Position numbers and translations under genes: made by a program | Shown: positions 2,217 through 19,808 of the stretch, piece by piece | Numbering within the stretch: position 1 is the stretch's first letter | Layout of the letters: the number at the start of each line of letters is the position of its first letter | Notes under the pieces: model-generated | Told to the model about the DNA's origin: nothing | Database searches by the model: none | The model's input: the letters and a program-made list of their open reading frames with translations, nothing else | Assembly: GCA_018661705.1 (NCBI GenBank) | Contig: JABJHR010000001.1 | Location: 47,042-111,041, forward strand | Length of the DNA stretch: 64,000 nucleotides | Source: Candidatus Woesearchaeota archaeon | GTDB lineage: Archaea > Nanobdellota > Nanobdellia > Woesearchaeales > DSVV01 | Direction of reading: 5' to 3'

Positions 2217-2410
2217 TAGTGAAAAAATAGCATCCGCCGGTGTTGAAGAGTAATACAATTTACTTTTCGATACAAAAAATAATAACGTGGCCAGGCGAGG
2301 TGAAACCGAGTAGGACTTTAGTCCGTCTGTGCCATTGTTGTTATTGTTTTTTGTTTATGTGTTTATGGCAACAAATGACTACAACACTAGGGCGGAGTTA
2401 ATGTCGCTTA
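2217..2410 (+). repeat. Family B structured repeat, degenerate and split by a Family A copy
   Basis: TAGTGAAAAAATAGCATCCGC..TGTTGAAGAGTAATAC (2218-2256) and ACTACAACACTAGG (2378-2391) match the two halves of 11971-12061. Confidence 0.7.
2272..2354 (+). repeat. Family A three-way-junction repeat, copy 1
   Basis: GGCCAGGCGA-GGT GAA ACC-GAGTA-GGACT TT AGTCC-GTCTGTGCC inside an AAAAATAATAAC/GTTATTGTTTTT stem. Confidence 0.9.
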
Positions 2411-2478
2411 CTCTATTTTTCTTTTTTCTGCAATGTATTATAACAACATTAATATATCTTAATGCATTACATCTTATT

Positions 2479-3198
2479 ATGAGTGGGAAATTTGTAATGG
2501 TTGAAGGTTTAGATGGAAGTGGTAAAGGTGTTGTAGTTAATACCCTAAAAGAATACTTTGATAACAAAGGATTAAAAGTATTTGATTTAAGAGAACATTG
2601 TAAAGAACATCTTTCTTTTCCAGAATTTAGTGAAATAGAAGAATATGATGTTATTATTAATGCTGAACCAACTTATAGTCATGTTGGAATCGCAATTAGG
2701 GATGAAATTATTAGAGAAAATGAAAGAAAGTATTCTGGGCTAAGTACTGCACATGCATTTGCACTTGATAGAGAAATTTTATACAAAAAATTATTAATTC
2801 CTGCACTTGAAAAAGGCAAAACTGTTATACAAGAAAGAGGATTAGTTACTAGTTTTGTTTATCAACCAATTCAATTAGAAAGAATTAGTCTAAAAGATAT
2901 TCTTAATATTCCTGGGAATAGATTAGCATTGAAATACAGACCTGATTTACTAATTATTACAAAAGTTGATCCTCAAGTTGTTATCCATCGTTTAAAAAAT
3001 AGAGAGAAAAAAGATAATGCAATATTTGAGAAATTAGTTTTTCAAAGGCAAGTTGCAAACAGGTATGAAAGTGAATGGTTAAGCAAATTGTTTTCAGGCA
3101 GAGGTTCACAAGTTCAATTTTTAGATACTAATTATCCCAAAACAGTTGAAGACACCCAAAAGGCTGCAATTGAAATGTGGGAAGAGTTTGATAAGTAG
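2479..3198 (+). CDS. tmk: thymidylate kinase
   Basis: FVMVEGLDGSGK P-loop, AEPT, FALDR, ERG...YQ and PDLLII. Start moved to ATG 2479 because the track's extension runs through repeats. Confidence 0.85.
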   Translation: MSGKFVMVEGLDGSGKGVVVNTLKEYFDNKGLKVFDLREHCKEHLSFPEFSEIEEYDVIINAEPTYSHVGIAIRDEIIRENERKYSGLSTAHAFALDREILYKKLLIPALEKGKTVIQERGLVTSFVYQPIQLERISLKDILNIPGNRLALKYRPDLLIITKVDPQVVIHRLKNREKKDNAIFEKLVFQRQVANRYESEWLSKLFSGRGSQVQFLDTNYPKTVEDTQKAAIEMWEEFDK

Positions 3199-3812: not shown

Positions 3813-5297
3813 ATGATGACTGAAGGTATGGATGCATTAGATTTATTAGTTGCTTCTAGTAGAGAAAATAGATCAGAGAAGCCTCAAATTAAAAGAGCAA
3901 TAGTTAGCTTTAGTTATGATAGAAAATTAGAGTTTGATGAAGCTTGTAAAAAGGCGCAGGATAAGGCTGCCTTGGAAGAAAAACTTCAAAAACCTGGGAG
4001 AAGTCATGTTTTCTATAGGACATTAGATTATAAATTTAATGGGGAAGAAGTAGATTTTGTTAAATTTAATCTGTTAATTGGGGAAGTTCCCGGGGTTGTT
4101 TACACTTATCTTAATGTTATGCTTTCAGATTTAGAAGAAGTTAGTTTTGTTGTAAGTCCCTTATCAAAAGAAATACTTAATGAATGCAGAAAGATATATG
4201 GTGATTTTGGAAAAACAGTTCATGTAACTGATGAGCTTGATCCAGACCAAACATGGACAGATCTTAGTTTTTTTAATTCTTTTGCTGATAAAGGAGTCAG
4301 ACCCTTTCAAAATCTAGGAGAAGATGAACAGTTTTTATTGGTTCCAGGAGATATGCCATTTACTGACCAAGAAACAATGAATGATATTATTTATGATAAG
4401 AGAAACCAAGGTCATGATGTTATACTAAATTTTAATTATTTTTTTAATATGTTTTGTGGTCTTGATGTTGTTTATCCAAGAAGAAATGCACATTATCACA
4501 TATTAAATCCAGATGGAACAACTAACTCTGGGAAAGAATCTAATCTTGTTGTTATGAATAGTAGGATTCTACCTTATATCGGTCATTTTACAGATAGTAG
4601 AAAAAATGGCGGAGTAATAAAAGCATCTATTGATTTAATATTGGATGGCAAAGAAGTAATTAGTGAAAGCTATAATGAAGGTAATTCAAGAAGGTTAAGA
4701 GATATGGCTTTTGGTGAATGGAAAACACTATTTAGTAGATTAAGGTTAGCTGCAAAAGGAAACATGAGAGCAATTAGATCAATATTATATAATAAAATGG
4801 TAAAAGATCCAAGATCTAAGAAACAATTAGTGTTTGATATTTCTCATTTAAATAAATTAGCCTATGTATTAGCTGAGCTTAATCCTTTATTTAGATTTTA
4901 TACTCCTGGTTCAGATCCTGAAAATAAACATCCTAACATGGTAGCTCATCATGATTTCAGTAGAGTTAATGATTTAGATGCACCACAAGATTATGTTGGA
5001 TTTCTTGGCCCATTAAAGTATTGTGCTGAGAAAGGTTGGAATTTAGGACAAATTTATAGGAATGCAGGACTATTAAATGATTTTTTACCAGCAATGGCAA
5101 GATTAAAATCAGATCATTTATTTTTTGCAGAACATAATGCAATTGTTAATGATACTTCAAGGGGATTAGGTTTAGATAAGGATGTGTTTAATGGCGATGA
5201 TCTTAATTTACAGATATATACGAGACATCAATATCCGGGAATATTAAGACAATTACACAGATACGTAATAAGAAATAGAGTTACACCAAAGCAATAA
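3813..5297 (+). CDS. hypothetical protein, possible divergent GT-A/NTP-transferase fold
   Basis: 494 aa; LLVPGDMPF, GKESNL and DLDAPQD resemble MobA-like nucleotidyltransferase motifs. Confidence 0.5.
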   Translation: MMTEGMDALDLLVASSRENRSEKPQIKRAIVSFSYDRKLEFDEACKKAQDKAALEEKLQKPGRSHVFYRTLDYKFNGEEVDFVKFNLLIGEVPGVVYTYLNVMLSDLEEVSFVVSPLSKEILNECRKIYGDFGKTVHVTDELDPDQTWTDLSFFNSFADKGVRPFQNLGEDEQFLLVPGDMPFTDQETMNDIIYDKRNQGHDVILNFNYFFNMFCGLDVVYPRRNAHYHILNPDGTTNSGKESNLVVMNSRILPYIGHFTDSRKNGGVIKASIDLILDGKEVISESYNEGNSRRLRDMAFGEWKTLFSRLRLAAKGNMRAIRSILYNKMVKDPRSKKQLVFDISHLNKLAYVLAELNPLFRFYTPGSDPENKHPNMVAHHDFSRVNDLDAPQDYVGFLGPLKYCAEKGWNLGQIYRNAGLLNDFLPAMARLKSDHLFFAEHNAIVNDTSRGLGLDKDVFNGDDLNLQIYTRHQYPGILRQLHRYVIRNRVTPKQ

Positions 5298-5928: not shown

Positions 5929-6270
5929 TTATTCCTCAGATAAGATTTTTTCAATTTTAATTGCTATTTCTTTTGATTCACTTACTTGGTTTTTCATCTT
6001 GTTGATGAGTTTGTTTAATTGTCTTATTGTGCCCATGATTAGAATATCACTTTTCTCAATACTGCAATTAACACAGCCTTTGTTAACAGCAACATCTCCA
6101 CCAATAGAAAGCATTTCTTGTTTTAAGATGTTTGCAATTGCATTTCTAACATCTTTTATTTTTATGATTCTAAATTTAGATTTATCAAGCATATAATTGG
6201 TTGCCCATTCATCTACTCCAATGTCTTGCATCTCTTGTTTAACATCTTTTTCTGGGATTAGTTCTGCCAT
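5929..6270 (-). CDS. stand-alone domain resembling the N-terminal extension of long dihydropteroate synthases
   Basis: ANILKQEMLSIGGDVAV...DILIMGT..QL..LI.KMK.Q motif; no pterin-binding barrel follows. Confidence 0.65.
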   Translation of the reverse strand: MAELIPEKDVKQEMQDIGVDEWATNYMLDKSKFRIIKIKDVRNAIANILKQEMLSIGGDVAVNKGCVNCSIEKSDILIMGTIRQLNKLINKMKNQVSESKEIAIKIEKILSEE

Positions 6271-6295
6271 TTTTTATTTATATTTCTTAAAAGAT

Positions 6296-6399
6296 AGAAA
6301 AAACAACAACAACTTAGGCACAGACGGACTTTTTCTTTCAGAAAAAATCCTACTCACCTCGCTATGCTCGGTTCGCCTGGCCATGCTATTGTTTTTTCT
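6296..6399 (-). repeat. Family A three-way-junction repeat, copy 2
   Basis: Minus strand: GGCCAGGCGA-ACC GAGCATAGCGA GGT-GAGTA-GGATTTTTT..AAAAAGTCC-GTCTGTGCC. Confidence 0.9.
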
Positions 6400-6413
6400 T
6401 TATTAAAATAAAA

Positions 6414-7145
6414 TTATGCTTTTGCTTTGAAAAGTCTACTTATCAAATAGCTTTTATCGACATGTAAAATGTCTGATGGAATCTTAAATTTGCTTGTTAC
6501 TTTATGTAACACTGCATTCATTCCAAAATAACTGCCAATAATTCCCATTGCAAATAATGATCTTTCAAATACAACTACTGGCATTAATGCTAGCCATTCT
6601 GCAGGAGACATTGGGAATGTGTAAAGCCATGCAACACTCCCTATACTGTGTGCTACAAATGTTGCTCCAAAACTTTTTAAGATTAAATTATCTGAATATC
6701 TTGTTGGTAAAATTGCTACAATTATTGGAACCCACCAAAACATTGCATATAACCATGCTTCTCTACCAACTGGGTGCATAATGAATGCAATCATTGCAAT
6801 TAATGGGATTACTACACCAAATATTTTTGCTAACATTGGTTTGCCAAATAATTTTTTTCTTGAACCAAAATAAATTGCAGCAAATATCATTGGAGTTAAT
6901 CTAACTATATTAACTAAAGTAAATGCTTTTCCAGCAATTATATAATCAGTACCATGTGCAATTAAAACTGATATTGCACCAACAATCGGACCTAAAAATG
7001 CACCTGCGATTGGTCCAAAGAATTGAAATAATGTGAAAAATTGGTTATCTGCACCAACTAATGGTGAAAAATTAACTCTTCTTCCTATAAATACTAATGC
7101 TGCGAATAATACTAAGAATATTACATGTTTTTTAGTTATTTTCAT
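6414..7145 (-). CDS. integral membrane protein, ECF S-component-like
   Basis: About 7 hydrophobic helices; FFGPIAGAFLGPIVGAIS resembles the S-component 'G..fGp..G' motif. Confidence 0.55.
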   Translation of the reverse strand: MKITKKHVIFLVLFAALVFIGRRVNFSPLVGADNQFFTLFQFFGPIAGAFLGPIVGAISVLIAHGTDYIIAGKAFTLVNIVRLTPMIFAAIYFGSRKKLFGKPMLAKIFGVVIPLIAMIAFIMHPVGREAWLYAMFWWVPIIVAILPTRYSDNLILKSFGATFVAHSIGSVAWLYTFPMSPAEWLALMPVVVFERSLFAMGIIGSYFGMNAVLHKVTSKFKIPSDILHVDKSYLISRLFKAKA

Positions 7146-7243
7146 TTTTACACCCCTGATTGTTTTGAATTAGGATGGCATGGGGTTTTAAATAGTTTAT
7201 TATTGATTATTACATGATTTAAGAATATGTTGGTATTTGTTGA

Positions 7244-7432
7244 GTATATGCATAGCTCCTAACAAAGATGTTGTTGCTGCCGGTTATAGTGGCTGAAATC
7301 CCATTGAATAATTTATTTAAATCATGTTATGTAGTATATTATTGGATTTCAGTTCCAAATATCATAAACCTATAATGCCACTATAACAAATTTGAGGCAG
7401 TAACAACATCATAAAAGGAGCTATGCACATAC
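7244..7432. mobile_element. MITE-like element (189 bp, 17-bp terminal inverted repeats, 8-bp flanking direct repeat)
   Basis: GTATATGCATAGCTCCT (7244-7260) / AGGAGCTATGCACATAC (7416-7432), flanked by TTTGTTGA at 7236-7243 and 7433-7440; nested internal stems. Confidence 0.7.
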
Positions 7433-7484
7433 TTTGTTGAATAATATTTATATAACCTAATGGATTACTTAATTTTAATTTAAA

Positions 7485-10151
7485 ATGTCTTCGAGAATTA
7501 TTTTCTATGGGGGAGTAGATGAGATTGGAGGTAATATGTTCCTTTTAGAGGACACTTTAGAAGATAAAGTTGTAAGAGTTTTATTTGATTTTGGTTTAAA
7601 CTTCAGTAGGCAAGGTGAATTATTTAGTTTTCCTGAAGGAGTAAGAAAGTATAATGCCTTGTCTATGTTCTTTGAATTGGGTGTATATTCAATTATGCAA
7701 CAAGCAAGAGGTGTTTATAGACAGGATTATCTCAGAAGAATGGGTCTTGAACCTACAAAAGAACCTACTTTAGATGCTCTTGTTTTATCACACCCCCACA
7801 TAGATCATGCTGCAGGTATACATTTGTTAAGACCAGATATTCCAATCTATATGAGTCAAGGTGCTAAAAAAGTTCTTTGGAATTTAGAAACAACATCATC
7901 AACACCTTTTAATGAATTTTTACTTTTCAAATATTTAGGTGGGCATGCTTTACATACAAAACAAGATCGATTTACATTTATTAGTGGAGATTCTGTTGCA
8001 ATGCCAAGAGATATAAGAGTATTTAATGAAGCTACAAGTGAAAAAAAGGGTGAAAGTTTTAATGTTGGTCATGTCAAGGTTGAATCTTATGGTGTTGATC
8101 ATTCTGTTCCTGGATCTTGTGGTTTTATAATACATACTTCTTCTGGGCCTGTAGTTTTTACAGGAGATTTAAGATTAAGAGGAAGAAAAGGAAAAGAAAC
8201 TAAATATTTTATTCAAAAAGCAAAAGAAGCAAAGCCAAAATATATGTTATGTGAAGGAACTGGTCTTTCAAAAACTGATAGTGGAACTGAAGAGGATATT
8301 GTTAAAAATTTAACACAGATTGTAAAAAAGACAACTGGTCTTGTTGTTGTTGATTATGCAGGAAGAAACATGGATAGAATTGTTTCCATGGCCGAGGTTG
8401 CAAAAAAAACAGGAAGAATACAAGTTATTGATTCAAGACAGGCAAATTTGTTAGAACAATTTAGAAATGATGGTATGTATCCTAAATTAGGGAGTACTAA
8501 TCTCAGAGTTTTTTTACCTAGAAAAGGTAGTGGTAGTAAAGGCCTTGACGTACCTCCTGATTTTGTTACGCGTGATTATTTTAAATGGGAAAGAAGATTT
8601 TTAACCATGAATAAACGAGCAAGAACTGCTGATGGTGGTGGTACAGAACCATTGGATGTTTCTATTAAAGAACTTCAAGAGCATCCAGAAAAATTTATTT
8701 TATTTCTAAACAGAGCAAGTTTTTATTCATTTATTGAAATAAAACCACCAAAGGGAAGTTTATACATAAGGTCAAACGTGAATCCTTTTAATGAAGAAAT
8801 GAAAATGGGTGAAAAGAAATTATTAAATTGGTTAAAATTATTTAATCTTCTTAAACAACGTGATTTGTTATCAATGATGGATTCTAGTGCAGCAGTTATT
8901 CCTAGTGTGCATATCAGTGGTCATGTAAATGAAACGGAGTTAGAATGGCTTACTAATTATATTGCTCCTGAAAATTTAATTCCAATTCATACAGACGCCG
9001 CTTACACACAACGTTTTAGAGATGTATTTGATGGTAATGTTATTTTTGTTGGAAGAGATCAAGCTTTAGATCTCGATACTGGAAAAGCAAGAAAAGTTCA
9101 AACTGGTTTAAGAATTGATTTAGAAAGAAAAGTTACAGATAAAACTAGAAAAAAATTCAAGAAACTTCATGGAGTAAAAAAAGATTCAATAATTATAGAT
9201 GCAAGAAAAGTTGGTAGTTATTTATTTTGTAATTATTCTTATTATTTAGATTCTTTAATTAGAGATGGTGGGATGCTACCAATGTCCGGGTTAGTTGCCA
9301 GGAGCTTATGGTTGAAAGATATTTTTAGAAATCTGATTCCAAGAGAAAATGGTAAGCTAAAATTGTTTGTTGGAGAAAATTTAGATTATATTGGGGATCT
9401 TAAAGGAGAAGAACTTGCAGAACATCTTAAATTCAAATCAGCAGAATCATTTGCAAATAACGCAATGAGTTTTCAATGGCTTAATACTTTTATTAAATTT
9501 GGTAGGAAATATGATAGAGAGATTTATTGGGCACCTCCTGTTTATAGTCTTAAAGGGTTAAGTAAGCCATTAAGAAAAATTTGTCAAAATTATTACAATT
9601 TTCTTTTGGATACAGGTCTTCCAATATTGAACTGGTCTGGTAGGAAAGTTGCATTTTTCCATGAAGATGAAAGATATGTTGTTAATTTTAATTGGCTTAG
9701 AAATGGAATGCAGGTCGGTGCTGATAAAATTGCGTCTAAAAAATTAAAACAGTCAGAGCTTGATCAGGATTGGTTAGTTACATTAAAACTTTTGGCTTAT
9801 TGTACTATTGGGCATGAAGTAAGGGCAGACAGAATGAAGTGGGGAATTGAAGATGAAATCGCAAGAAAATGGGGCGGGCATGAAATGTATATTGATCCAC
9901 AAATTCAATATGTTGTTCATGATCTGCCAAATGAAAGGCTTTATAGCACCACAAGAACAGATGAAGATATTCCTGCAATGCTTAAAGTAATTCATGAAGC
10001 AAAAGAAGGAATTGATGCAATGTCATTTGAGCCTAATTTTGATAATTGTTTGAAATGTTCATACAATATTCAAGGTTATGATGGTGAACCAATATGTAAA
10101 AAAAGAAATCCCGATGTTGCTATGTTTAGACCAAGGGAAGATAAGAAATGA
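7485..10151 (+). CDS. RNase J-like MBL/beta-CASP nuclease fused to a C-terminal PD-(D/E)XK (Cas4/AddB-like) four-cysteine domain
   Basis: GGVDEIGGN, SHPHIDH, DHS, TGD, EGT, HISGH and IPIHT; the C-terminal part has YLFCNYSYYL...NCLKC...IC. Confidence 0.8.
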   Translation: MSSRIIFYGGVDEIGGNMFLLEDTLEDKVVRVLFDFGLNFSRQGELFSFPEGVRKYNALSMFFELGVYSIMQQARGVYRQDYLRRMGLEPTKEPTLDALVLSHPHIDHAAGIHLLRPDIPIYMSQGAKKVLWNLETTSSTPFNEFLLFKYLGGHALHTKQDRFTFISGDSVAMPRDIRVFNEATSEKKGESFNVGHVKVESYGVDHSVPGSCGFIIHTSSGPVVFTGDLRLRGRKGKETKYFIQKAKEAKPKYMLCEGTGLSKTDSGTEEDIVKNLTQIVKKTTGLVVVDYAGRNMDRIVSMAEVAKKTGRIQVIDSRQANLLEQFRNDGMYPKLGSTNLRVFLPRKGSGSKGLDVPPDFVTRDYFKWERRFLTMNKRARTADGGGTEPLDVSIKELQEHPEKFILFLNRASFYSFIEIKPPKGSLYIRSNVNPFNEEMKMGEKKLLNWLKLFNLLKQRDLLSMMDSSAAVIPSVHISGHVNETELEWLTNYIAPENLIPIHTDAAYTQRFRDVFDGNVIFVGRDQALDLDTGKARKVQTGLRIDLERKVTDKTRKKFKKLHGVKKDSIIIDARKVGSYLFCNYSYYLDSLIRDGGMLPMSGLVARSLWLKDIFRNLIPRENGKLKLFVGENLDYIGDLKGEELAEHLKFKSAESFANNAMSFQWLNTFIKFGRKYDREIYWAPPVYSLKGLSKPLRKICQNYYNFLLDTGLPILNWSGRKVAFFHEDERYVVNFNWLRNGMQVGADKIASKKLKQSELDQDWLVTLKLLAYCTIGHEVRADRMKWGIEDEIARKWGGHEMYIDPQIQYVVHDLPNERLYSTTRTDEDIPAMLKVIHEAKEGIDAMSFEPNFDNCLKCSYNIQGYDGEPICKKRNPDVAMFRPREDKK

Positions 10152-10302: not shown

Positions 10303-10625
10303 TGTAGGGGGATGATTGACTATCGGTGTTTAATTATACTGAGGAAAGTCTGCCCATCAATGCTCTTCGGAGTTGAAAGTGCCACTCAATGAGATCCTTA
10401 ACAGGATGGCAACCACTCAGAAACGATACCACCTTGGAAATGGGATGATATGGCGAAGTTTCTTGCGAAAGAAATGAGTTCCCATTGACGTCTTTCAAGG
10501 AAAGGATGAAACGGTGAGCCCTGGCTGATGCAAGTACAGAATGTACGCTAAGTAGAATGTCAATGCACCTGTTCGTTGTTTAATCCAGCGAAGGTGAACA
10601 GAAGGCAGCTTACATTCCCTCTACA
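10303..10625 (+). ncRNA. rnpB: RNase P RNA
   Basis: GAGGAAAGTC (CR I), CAGAAAC, GATGAAACGG, GCAAG and AACAGAAGGCAGCTTAC (CR V); P1 TGTAGGGGGATG/CATTCCCTCTACA; TATA TTTATAAAA at 10273; T-tract downstream. Confidence 0.93.
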
Positions 10626-10646: not shown

Positions 10647-11537
10647 TCATTTTCTCATCCCAAGTTTATCAAGCATATTAAGTGCCTCTTTATCAAACTT
10701 TGAGAAAGCGAACCATTTCTTACCGAGATCTTTTAATGAAGCTCCAAAATGATATACTTTTTTGTTGTCAATTATTAAAAATCTGTCGTGCGCTTGCTTA
10801 AACATTTTTACTTCAATAAATGGATATTGTGCATTGTATTTGATTAAGTCAAGCGATAACTGTTTAGAAATTTTTTTGGTGAATATAGTCACATCTACTT
10901 TTTTATTCTTTTTGCTGAAGAGAGTTAAGATAGAATCATCAATGTAATTGTCAATGAGAACTATTGAATTCTCAGCAGTTCTAATCAAGTCTGAAACAAA
11001 TTTGTATGCATCAAATATTTGTCCGTCAAAGAATACGCCTTTTTCAGGTTTTATGCTTCTGCTCTGGATTGTATCAAGTATCTTCTCAAATTTTTTATCA
11101 TACTCTACAAGTTTTGTTTCGACTAAATTTAGTCTCCCAAAAATCTGTGTATTTGATGAAATAAAGCGTCTCATTGCAATAAAAACGCTTATTATCTGTA
11201 TACTTATTTTAATAGCAATGTCACTTTTCAAAACTCCTGAAAGCATTGCCACACCTTGTTCAGTGAATACATAAGGTGGTTTTCTTCTACCGCCCCAACT
11301 TGAAGTCACAATTTGTGACCTCAAGTTATCAAACTCCTTAGTTGATAATTGAAACATGAAATTATTTGGGAATCTAAATTTATTTCTTTTAACTGCTTGA
11401 TTTAATACTTTAGTTTCTACGTTATACCATTTTGCCAAATCTTTATCTAATATTACTTGCAAACCCCTTATTGTATAAATCTTATCTTTTATTTTGTCTA
11501 TATTTGTTATTATTATTTTATTTTTCAAATTATGCAC
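10647..11537 (-). CDS. ORF6N (KilA-N-like) DNA-binding domain protein with a PLD-like C-terminal domain
   Basis: IRGLQVILDKDLA..Y.VETKVLNQAVKRN..RFP..FMFQL and FTEQGVAMLS; C-terminal HDRFLIID...GASLKDLG. The start may be TTG 11528. Confidence 0.9.
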   Translation of the reverse strand: MHNLKNKIIITNIDKIKDKIYTIRGLQVILDKDLAKWYNVETKVLNQAVKRNKFRFPNNFMFQLSTKEFDNLRSQIVTSSWGGRRKPPYVFTEQGVAMLSGVLKSDIAIKISIQIISVFIAMRRFISSNTQIFGRLNLVETKLVEYDKKFEKILDTIQSRSIKPEKGVFFDGQIFDAYKFVSDLIRTAENSIVLIDNYIDDSILTLFSKKNKKVDVTIFTKKISKQLSLDLIKYNAQYPFIEVKMFKQAHDRFLIIDNKKVYHFGASLKDLGKKWFAFSKFDKEALNMLDKLGMRK

Positions 11538-13311: not shown

Positions 13312-13405
13312 GAAAAAACAACAACATCGGCACAGACGGACTTTTTCTCTTTTTGTTCGAAAAAATCCTACTCAGCTTCGCTTTGCCTGGCCATGTTGTT
13401 TTTTC
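13312..13405 (-). repeat. Family A three-way-junction repeat, copy 3
   Basis: Minus strand: GGCCAGGCAA-AGC GAA GCT-GAGTA-GGATTTTTT..AAAAAGTCC-GTCTGTGCC. Confidence 0.9.
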
Positions 13406-19580: not shown

Positions 19581-19652
19581 TTATATTATAATAATATACT
19601 ACTTATATAGTAATATTTATAAAGGAAAAGTTTTTCTTCTAGCTTAGATTAT

Positions 19653-19745
19653 GCACCGGTGGTCTAATGGCTACAGCATTATAGCTGCCATAAATGACTT
19701 CGGCCTTCCAAGCCGGGTATCTGGGTTCAAATCCCGGCCGGTGCA
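19653..19745 (+). tRNA. tRNA-Gly(TCC) with a 21-nt BHB intron in the D-loop (19673-19693)
   Basis: Acceptor stem GCACCGG/CCGGTGC+A; anticodon TCC at 19707-19709; T-arm CTGGG TTCAAAT CCCGG; the insert forms a bulge-helix-bulge. Confidence 0.92.
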
Positions 19746-19808
19746 TTTTTTTACGCTGATGAGAATCAGAGATTAATAAAAACAAAAGTTAAAGCGAGGT
19801 AAAATAAA

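Follow-up and report, generated by a model that had tools for sequence, protein, structure and literature searches.

Nucleases of the metallo-beta-lactamase (MBL) and beta-CASP family are defined by motifs 1-4 together with motifs A (D/E), B (H) and C (H or V), and a histidine at motif C marks RNA-type, a valine DNA-type enzymes, according to PMC3095777. RNase J and its archaeal counterpart, aRNase J, have an MBL and beta-CASP core in which motif C is a His, and no Cas4-like domain. EF2904 of Enterococcus faecalis (2AZ4) is a hypothetical protein that stands alone, without a separate RNA-binding module, according to PMC3095777, and Phung et al. set aside the archaeal beta-CASP clusters beyond their four main groups (PMC3553952), so that archaeal members other than aRNase J and aCPSF1/2 were left unclassified. 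Nucleases of the AdnA/AddB/Dna2/Cas4 type (PF12705) share a fold and a staple of one plus three cysteines and work with a helicase or with Cas1. Two defense systems pair such elements with other proteins. In pAgo-ACE1 (APACE1), a Cas4-family accessory protein, which is an active single-stranded DNA endonuclease, is encoded together with an unrelated nuclease, an Argonaute, to which it binds (PMC12094033), and Cas14 of type VII CRISPR is an archaeal beta-CASP RNase that is activated via a partner with inactivated catalytic residues, its C-terminal adaptor being Cas10-like (PMC10910872). Here, we analyze a stretch of 64,000 nucleotides (hereafter the window) from a Candidatus Woesearchaeota archaeon (assembly GCA_018661705.1, contig JABJHR010000001.1, positions 47,042 to 111,041), in which one gene joins a beta-CASP nuclease to a catalytically degenerate Cas4/AddB-like domain. 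It represents a conserved module of two genes, here in the rare fused form. The module is apparently undescribed, both folds being already known: neither the pairing nor the fusion was found to be described in the literature, although supplementary neighborhood tables (PMC5704561, PMC10910872) might list it, and within the reach of this search an earlier note on the window, made from the sequence alone, was right to call the two-domain nuclease undescribed. The gene is organized as follows:

7485-10151, plus strand: single gene for a beta-CASP nuclease with a catalytically degenerate Cas4/AddB-like four-cysteine domain, 888 aa, without internal stops
7485-9074, plus strand: MBL/beta-CASP nuclease of an EF2904-like subfamily, approximately residues 1-530 (Pfam, PDB profile match, motifs 1-4, A, B and C)
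9075-9185, plus strand: basic linker, approximately residues 531-567 (from the sequence; net charge +9 over residues 531-570)
9186-10124, plus strand: predicted PD-(D/E)XK (PDDEXK_1/AddB/Cas4-like) domain, approximately residues 568-880 (AlphaFold2 model, VIA, Foldseek, motif counts)

The two-domain architecture claimed in the earlier note is genuine, since the 888-aa open reading frame (ORF) is intact in two species. An assembly artefact is ruled out by three observations: the 90% identity cluster of the protein has 12 members, seven of them 888 aa long and one labelled Candidatus Woesearchaeota, the remaining six full-length members being 91.8-92.0% identical; an ORF with the same fusion is present in a second species of the genus (locus L037, to which L149 of genome G788 is 99.8% identical); and a contig from the independent seawater run X4 covers positions 8850-9389, domain junction included, with zero differences. 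In the one species pair that was compared, the ratio of nonsynonymous to synonymous substitution rates (dN/dS) was 0.09 (N-half) and 0.14 (C-half), indicating that both halves are under purifying selection. Of 41 close relatives searched, the two sampled species of the genus carry the fusion; it was not found in the remaining 39, 23 of which belong to the same family. Apart from the fusion itself (P0001), no further fused form was found among 1446 candidates of 488-1554 aa, nothing exceeded 563 aa among 136 representative C-domain profile matches, and, again with the exception of P0001, nothing exceeded 649 aa among the best 120 of 604 N-half matches. The fusion is thus confined to one genus.

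In the N-half, every motif of the complete MBL/beta-CASP set announced for the first approximately 530 residues could be located: D35, H103-x-H105-x-D107-H108, H206, D228, E257, H480 and H502. With motifs 1-4, A, B and C in place, the N-half belongs to the beta-CASP family. All 18 aligned clade members share the motif residues, apart from one D-to-E exchange at motif 1, and motif C, represented by His502 (codon 8988-8990), is His in all 18. In Pfam, the N-half matched Lactamase_B, Lactamase_B_2 and RMMBL. The beta-CASP metallo-nuclease site is intact, and the enzyme is predicted to cut RNA. The designation as RNase J-like was correct with respect to the beta-CASP nuclease and needs refinement with respect to RNase J: membership in RNase J or aRNase J is ruled out because the NCBIfam scores are far below the cut-offs (69.7 bits versus 400 for TIGR00649; 59.3 versus 820 for NF047419) and EF2904 is nearer. 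In a search of the clade profile against the PDB, EF2904 was the best solved match (E 2.7e-50) with all catalytic motifs in common, compared to 1.5e-25 for the best RNase J and 2.8e-7 for the distantly matching Cas14. The protein is not an aCPSF1 either, as its MBL domain starts at residue 3, leaving no space for N-terminal KH domains, and as it scored 16 bits against a cut-off of 580. The source genome (G000; C1, C3, C6 and C14 are its contigs, and L-numbers denote the loci compared) contains three more beta-CASP genes, one of 439 aa on C6, one of 632 aa on C3 and one of approximately 430 aa on C14 (176998-178287); from their sequences, we take the first to be aRNase J and the second aCPSF1 as candidate names. 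With three other beta-CASP genes in the genome, the fused gene therefore fills no housekeeping gap.

By direct sequence search, the C-domain of the window protein had no match in Pfam, NCBIfam or the PDB. However, PF12705 (PDDEXK_1) was above the cut-off in three of six homologous partners, a profile search with the C-domain gave weak matches to Cas4 and ACE1 (E ~0.01), and PDDEXK_1 look-alikes at 0.91 in Atlas provided a lead only. The AlphaFold2 model of the domain, built on a 98-row alignment, had a predicted local distance difference test score (pLDDT) of 92.3. In VIA, it matched AdnA with Z 15.1, a root-mean-square deviation (rmsd) of 4.1 and 230 aligned residues, followed by ACE1 (11.6), AddB (11.2), Cas4 (10.5) and Dna2 (9.8), whereas unrelated rows reached at most 4.5; Foldseek agreed on the fold, with ACE1 as the top match. 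The C-half is thus predicted to fold like the AdnA/AddB/Cas4 nucleases, in line with the restriction-endonuclease-like, AddB/Cas4/Dna2-type fold that had been proposed for it. It also contains the suggested arrangement of one plus three cysteines, C582 (9228-9230) and C855 (10047-10049), C858 (10056-10058) and C871 (10095-10097), besides the additional and unconserved C700 and C773. Judging from these cysteines and the fold, the C-half would be expected to hold a [4Fe-4S] cluster.

The suspicion that the catalytic core is degenerate turned out to be well founded. The catalytic H, D, D/E-x-K and QxxxY of PF12705-type nucleases are all missing from the window protein, which has K611, N736, L764 and K768 at the catalytic positions and no D/E-x-K in either register at 746-750. 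Out of the 136 representatives from the profile search, those with at least 290 aa were combined with the locus proteins to give 126 rows, which are partly redundant, and the full catalytic set was scored as H, D, D/E, K and Q. In FastTree trees, the inactivated partners formed a nested clade in which none of 74 members had the full set, compared to 49 of the 52 rows outside it; the support for this clade was 0.69 and rose to 0.97 when the most basal member was left out. All four cysteines are kept in 68 of the 74 members, and across these sequences, at 20-40% identity, cysteines and structural residues are conserved while the catalytic residues are lost. The dead clade appears to have arisen within a family of intact solo nucleases, so that the loss of catalysis in a Cas4/AddB nuclease family is documented sequence by sequence as the partner emerged. 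The dead partner apparently derives from this catalytically intact solo PDDEXK_1 family (L036:7117-8073, P0078-P0148). The L036 locus, the sole solo-nuclease locus seen, adjoins what we take from the sequences to be exosome and proteasome genes. A solo PD-(D/E)XK gene is also present in the source genome (C1:140505-141452), with intact catalytic motifs and one Cys changed to Ser. Inactivation of a Cas4-like protein is already known from the virus TTV1, for which the accessible part of PMC5704561 mentions no beta-lactamase-fold partner.

Compared to AdnA, AddB, Dna2 and Cas4, the C-half thus has a beta-CASP nuclease in the place of the helicase or Cas1, and this partnership extends well beyond the fused gene. 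When the search started from the partner, a separate beta-CASP gene was found directly upstream in 10 of 12 fetched C-domain loci. The exceptions were L036, whose solo nuclease is intact and falls outside the clade, and L035 of genome G521, with a partner remnant of 209 aa (7354-7983); in this genome, which is 94% complete, no copy of the nuclease was detected. A search that starts from the nuclease is not subject to the selection inherent in the partner-side search: among 80 metagenome loci, 4 belonged to the clade and all 4 had the partner, while the other 76 had none, and with a narrower alignment the partner was present in 6 of 6 genome loci (Aenigmatarchaeota, Woesearchaeota and others). 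Altogether, 10 of 10 newly found clade loci have the partner adjacent or fused, L039 and L141 sharing one partner sequence. At L039, the nuclease is split (151-1575), and at both L039 and L141 the partner (L141:1619-2479) stops before the last cysteines. All partner-linked nucleases group in a single clade (support 0.97), which differs from EF2904 and its archaeal relatives by the motifs GDxRxRG and HV/IT/SGH. In the EF2904-like sister clade, the partner was absent from 95 of 95 loci (76 from metagenomes and 19 from a class-wide search, the latter checked within 1.5 kb; at least 1 kb of downstream sequence was visible in 72 of the 95). One EF2904-like clade, from a family without known function, is now tied to a fixed partner.

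Counting L039 and L141 once, 20 loci comprise 2 fused, 11 tandem and 7 tail-to-tail arrangements. The gaps are between -23 and +29 nt in the 11 tandem loci, for which start codons were chosen manually, and between -12 and 0 nt in six tail-to-tail loci, with +135 nt in the seventh. Six locus pairs are 81-92% identical and therefore not independent, and the tally leaves out P0151-P0156, P0230, most representatives and the basal dead subclade (P0065, P0070, P0072, P0073, P0077, P0085 and P0109). For 19 pairs, the trees of the two halves had 13 of 16 splits in common, to which shared ancestry contributes; this agreement indicates joint inheritance and not binding. The C-half of the window protein clusters with most of the tail-to-tail partners (support 0.96). 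As other small archaea encode the same two parts in neighboring but separate genes, a role of the dead domain in aiming or activating the nuclease is likely, and we consider it very probable that the two halves are functionally coupled. Both the natural single-chain fusion and the two-gene versions make this coupling directly testable.

The tandem partners are longer than the C-half of the window protein, with 428-512 aa and approximately 120 extra residues, which in most of them carry a predicted GNAT fold; the window protein is without this extension, which is found on about half of the dead partners and is not a feature of AdnA, AddB, Dna2 or Cas4. The extension had no relevant match in Pfam. 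The model of a long partner (pLDDT 92.2) predicts a GNAT fold at residues 358-476 (Z 10.2, rmsd 2.6, 98 aligned), and this part took 39 of the top 50 structure-match rows. In 39 long forms, a Y-x-S-x-x-x-G-x-G-F-E and AG...LGY pattern is conserved (e.g. L025:7062-8495), the first part of which resembles a partial GNAT motif A, which would bind acetyl-CoA.

The reading that we tentatively favor, though the chances are somewhat against it, is that the dead Cas4/AddB-fold domain is a nucleic-acid-sensing control subunit of the beta-CASP RNase in an accessory module directed against viruses or mobile elements. The separate halves would be in physical contact, and the C-domain might bind single-stranded DNA or DNA ends in its former nuclease groove. 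The bound nucleic acid could then aim or release the RNase activity of the beta-CASP half, and the released RNase may cause RNA decay or dormancy upon infection. A role in defense, which we regard as possible but not yet probable, is suggested because of the patchy, insertion-like spread of the module and the parallels with ACE1-pAgo and Cas14. Among 401 genomes of the order, 7 contained the C-domain, and among the 401 of the phylum sample 11 did, the source genome being counted in both. The parallel with ACE1 consists of a Cas4-family protein that is co-encoded with an unrelated nuclease, although here the Cas4-like part is dead and a guide protein is lacking. In its most specific form, the proposal is that of a DPANN immune module in which an inactivated Cas4-like Fe-S nuclease senses foreign or single-stranded DNA and unlocks a beta-CASP RNase, with fused and tail-to-tail forms and an operonic form that includes an added GNAT-fold regulator, as a CRISPR-free parallel of type VII Cas14; we consider this version doubtful. 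To our knowledge, little is known about the immunity of DPANN archaea, and if the dead domain gates the RNase, the module would represent a new sensor-effector pairing and a candidate for CRISPR-independent defense in this group.

Several observations weigh against a function in defense. The neighbors of the module differ among lineages and are mostly housekeeping genes, often for translation, and not defense islands. Neither half matched PADLOC 2.0 (0 of 6 proteins at E <= 0.1 with the 2023 library), and matches to PADLOC among 107 neighboring proteins were scattered, none of them recurring across lineages, and mostly partial hits to generic methyltransferase, kinase, ATPase and helix-turn-helix families. 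The two-gene operon with overlapping genes that is typical of type II toxin-antitoxin systems is present in the 11 tandem loci and absent from the 7 tail-to-tail and 2 fused ones, so that the module as a whole fits no classic toxin-antitoxin operon. Two RNA runs covered rnpB only; the absence of a transcript of the gene from them does not tell whether it is expressed or silent, as contigs can only reveal presence. In searches for viral occurrence, one scan gave three weak, unrelated MBL matches and the other none, both scans being of low sensitivity.

An actual link to type VII CRISPR, for which the earlier note had cited the recruitment of beta-CASP proteins as effectors, is not supported. 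A crude repeat scan found a CRISPR array in none of 20 loci and two 3-copy repeats in the source genome, models for Cas5 and Cas7 matched none of the 107 neighbors, and Cas1 was not detected in the source genome, which is 92.8% complete. In addition, the C-domain is AddB/Cas4-like and not Cas10-like.

Among the rival explanations, a specialized enzyme of RNA processing or decay accounts best for the data, although we regard it as unlikely. The dead domain would then be a substrate-binding or scaffold subunit, similar to the KH domains of aCPSF1, with no role in defense. The RNA-type His at motif C and the housekeeping flanks with their many translation genes would be expected in this case, and the known archaeal beta-CASP enzymes are RNA-metabolism factors according to PMC3553952. 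Such an enzyme should, however, be less patchily distributed than in 2 of 41 relatives and, within the order, 7 of 401 genomes, and neither the three other beta-CASP genes in the genome nor the derivation of the partner from a DNA-nuclease fold agree well with it; a conserved non-coding RNA near the module was not found in the locus scans.

The origin of the partner directs attention to DNA end-processing or repair, where the beta-CASP half would stand in for the lost PD-(D/E)XK activity, with single-stranded DNA threaded into it by the Fe-S domain, like an Artemis/SNM1 head on an AddB/Dna2 clamp. All leading fold matches, AdnA, AddB, ACE1, Cas4, Dna2 and MGME1, are nucleases of DNA resection or DNA processing, and beta-CASP domains can act on DNA, as stated in PMC10910872. 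On the other hand, His instead of the DNA-type Val at motif C in 18 of 18 clade members, the lack of a helicase or repair gene that recurs in the neighborhoods, and a patchy spread unlike that of core repair genes make this explanation improbable. A Rad50-like ATPase, as we presume from its sequence, lies near L028 and would fit DNA end-processing.

Genes for a family of HAD hydrolases raise a third alternative, in which the nuclease would degrade host nucleic acid to mononucleotides that a HAD phosphatase and kinases recycle in a symbiont whose own de novo synthesis is limited. A member of this family (PF00702) adjoins the module in six loci, in three orientations:

L028:6083-6925, L038:4565-5566, L140:9531-10448, L142:90-1031, L144:6082-6951 and L145:574-1449: HAD hydrolase beside the module

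Nucleotide-kinase genes are also located 4-7 kb upstream of the fused gene in the window, and a HAD-like gene, named from its motif, lies beside 16 of the 95 sister-clade loci (L040-L116, L121-L139). However, of 401 genomes sampled from the order, 13 contain this HAD family, 1 of them among the 7 module genomes and 12 without a detected module, and it was found in none of five further genomes, four of them module-bearing, nor in the source genome. These counts rule out the HAD hydrolase as an obligatory third part, leaving it as an optional one, and as nucleotide scavenging would also leave the dead nuclease and the GNAT fold unexplained, we consider it highly improbable. Nine and seven sister-clade loci, respectively, adjoin proteins that resemble, by their motifs, DNA methyltransferase or restriction genes.

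That the halves are not coupled at all, but form a co-travelling cassette in which the fusion arose by chance and the C-terminal nuclease is decaying, is scarcely credible, for although the fusion is confined to one genus and one partner remnant occurs without nuclease (G521), the adjacency survives inversion and fusion, dN/dS on the dead domain is 0.14, and cysteines and structural residues persist across 74 sequences of 20-40% identity that have lost the catalytic ones.

Two structured elements flank the fused gene in the window:

7243-7433, no strand assigned: MITE-like long hairpin with terminal inverted repeats, outside the module (folding, second copy, empty site)
10304-10624, plus strand: archaeal RNase P RNA, rnpB (Rfam RF00373, 134.7 bits)

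Both elements named by the earlier note are therefore real, whereas a link of the gene to either of them was not borne out. The hairpin had no family match in Rfam and is exceptionally stable (z = -6.9; none of 200 shuffles was equally stable). An imperfect 11-nt direct repeat lies at its two ends (7236-7246 and 7433-7443, 10 of 11 positions matching), and the hairpin has a second copy in the source genome (C1:126833-127019, 89%), which lies between unrelated genes and where the flanking duplication is weak. The sister species lacks the hairpin and has a single copy of the 11-nt repeat. In two metagenome runs, the hairpin reached a depth of approximately 350-380 compared to approximately 4 (~80-fold), with several different flanks. 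With terminal inverted repeats, an imperfect duplication, several copies and an empty site in a relative, the hairpin shows the traits of a miniature inverted-repeat transposable element (MITE) and acts like a MITE-type insertion within the promoter region. rnpB was present in 1 of 19 module loci scanned, namely in L037 of the same genus, and a conserved non-coding RNA near the module was absent from these scans. The mobility of the hairpin and the adjacency of rnpB in only one genus rule out the hypothesis of a functional flanking RNA, and the conservation of flanking RNAs that the earlier note proposed to check is not found.

Beyond rnpB, the minus strand at 10647-11537 encodes a protein with ORF6N and PLD-like parts that matches the PADLOC candidate PDC-S05 over its full length (E 1.3e-122), the sole full-length match to a defense candidate. 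The gene is absent from the sister species and is therefore a recent insertion beside rnpB. Upstream of the hairpin, the minus strand encodes a 243-aa membrane protein (6414-7145), which may resemble the S-component of an energy-coupling factor (ECF) transporter and has only weak Pfam matches. It is followed by a 113-aa ORF (5929-6270, minus strand) that presumably resembles the N-terminal extension of some dihydropteroate synthases (weak Pfam matches only) and is missing from the sister species. A 494-aa protein encoded at 3813-5297 on the plus strand has no match in Pfam, NCBIfam or PADLOC and is conserved in the sister species. The nucleotide-kinase-like cluster at 3-776, 1604-2152 and 2329-3198 consists of two AAA_18 kinases, the first of which includes a dCMP-deaminase segment, and a thymidylate kinase. 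An intergenic repeat of approximately 100 nt, similar to repetitive extragenic palindromic elements, occurs at 6270-6413, 2280-2345 and 13317-13400 of the window; across the genome, it yielded 63 BLAST pieces at E <= 1e-3, and it is present in the sister species too. Further downstream, a tRNA-Gly(GCC) is located on the plus strand at 19652-19746.

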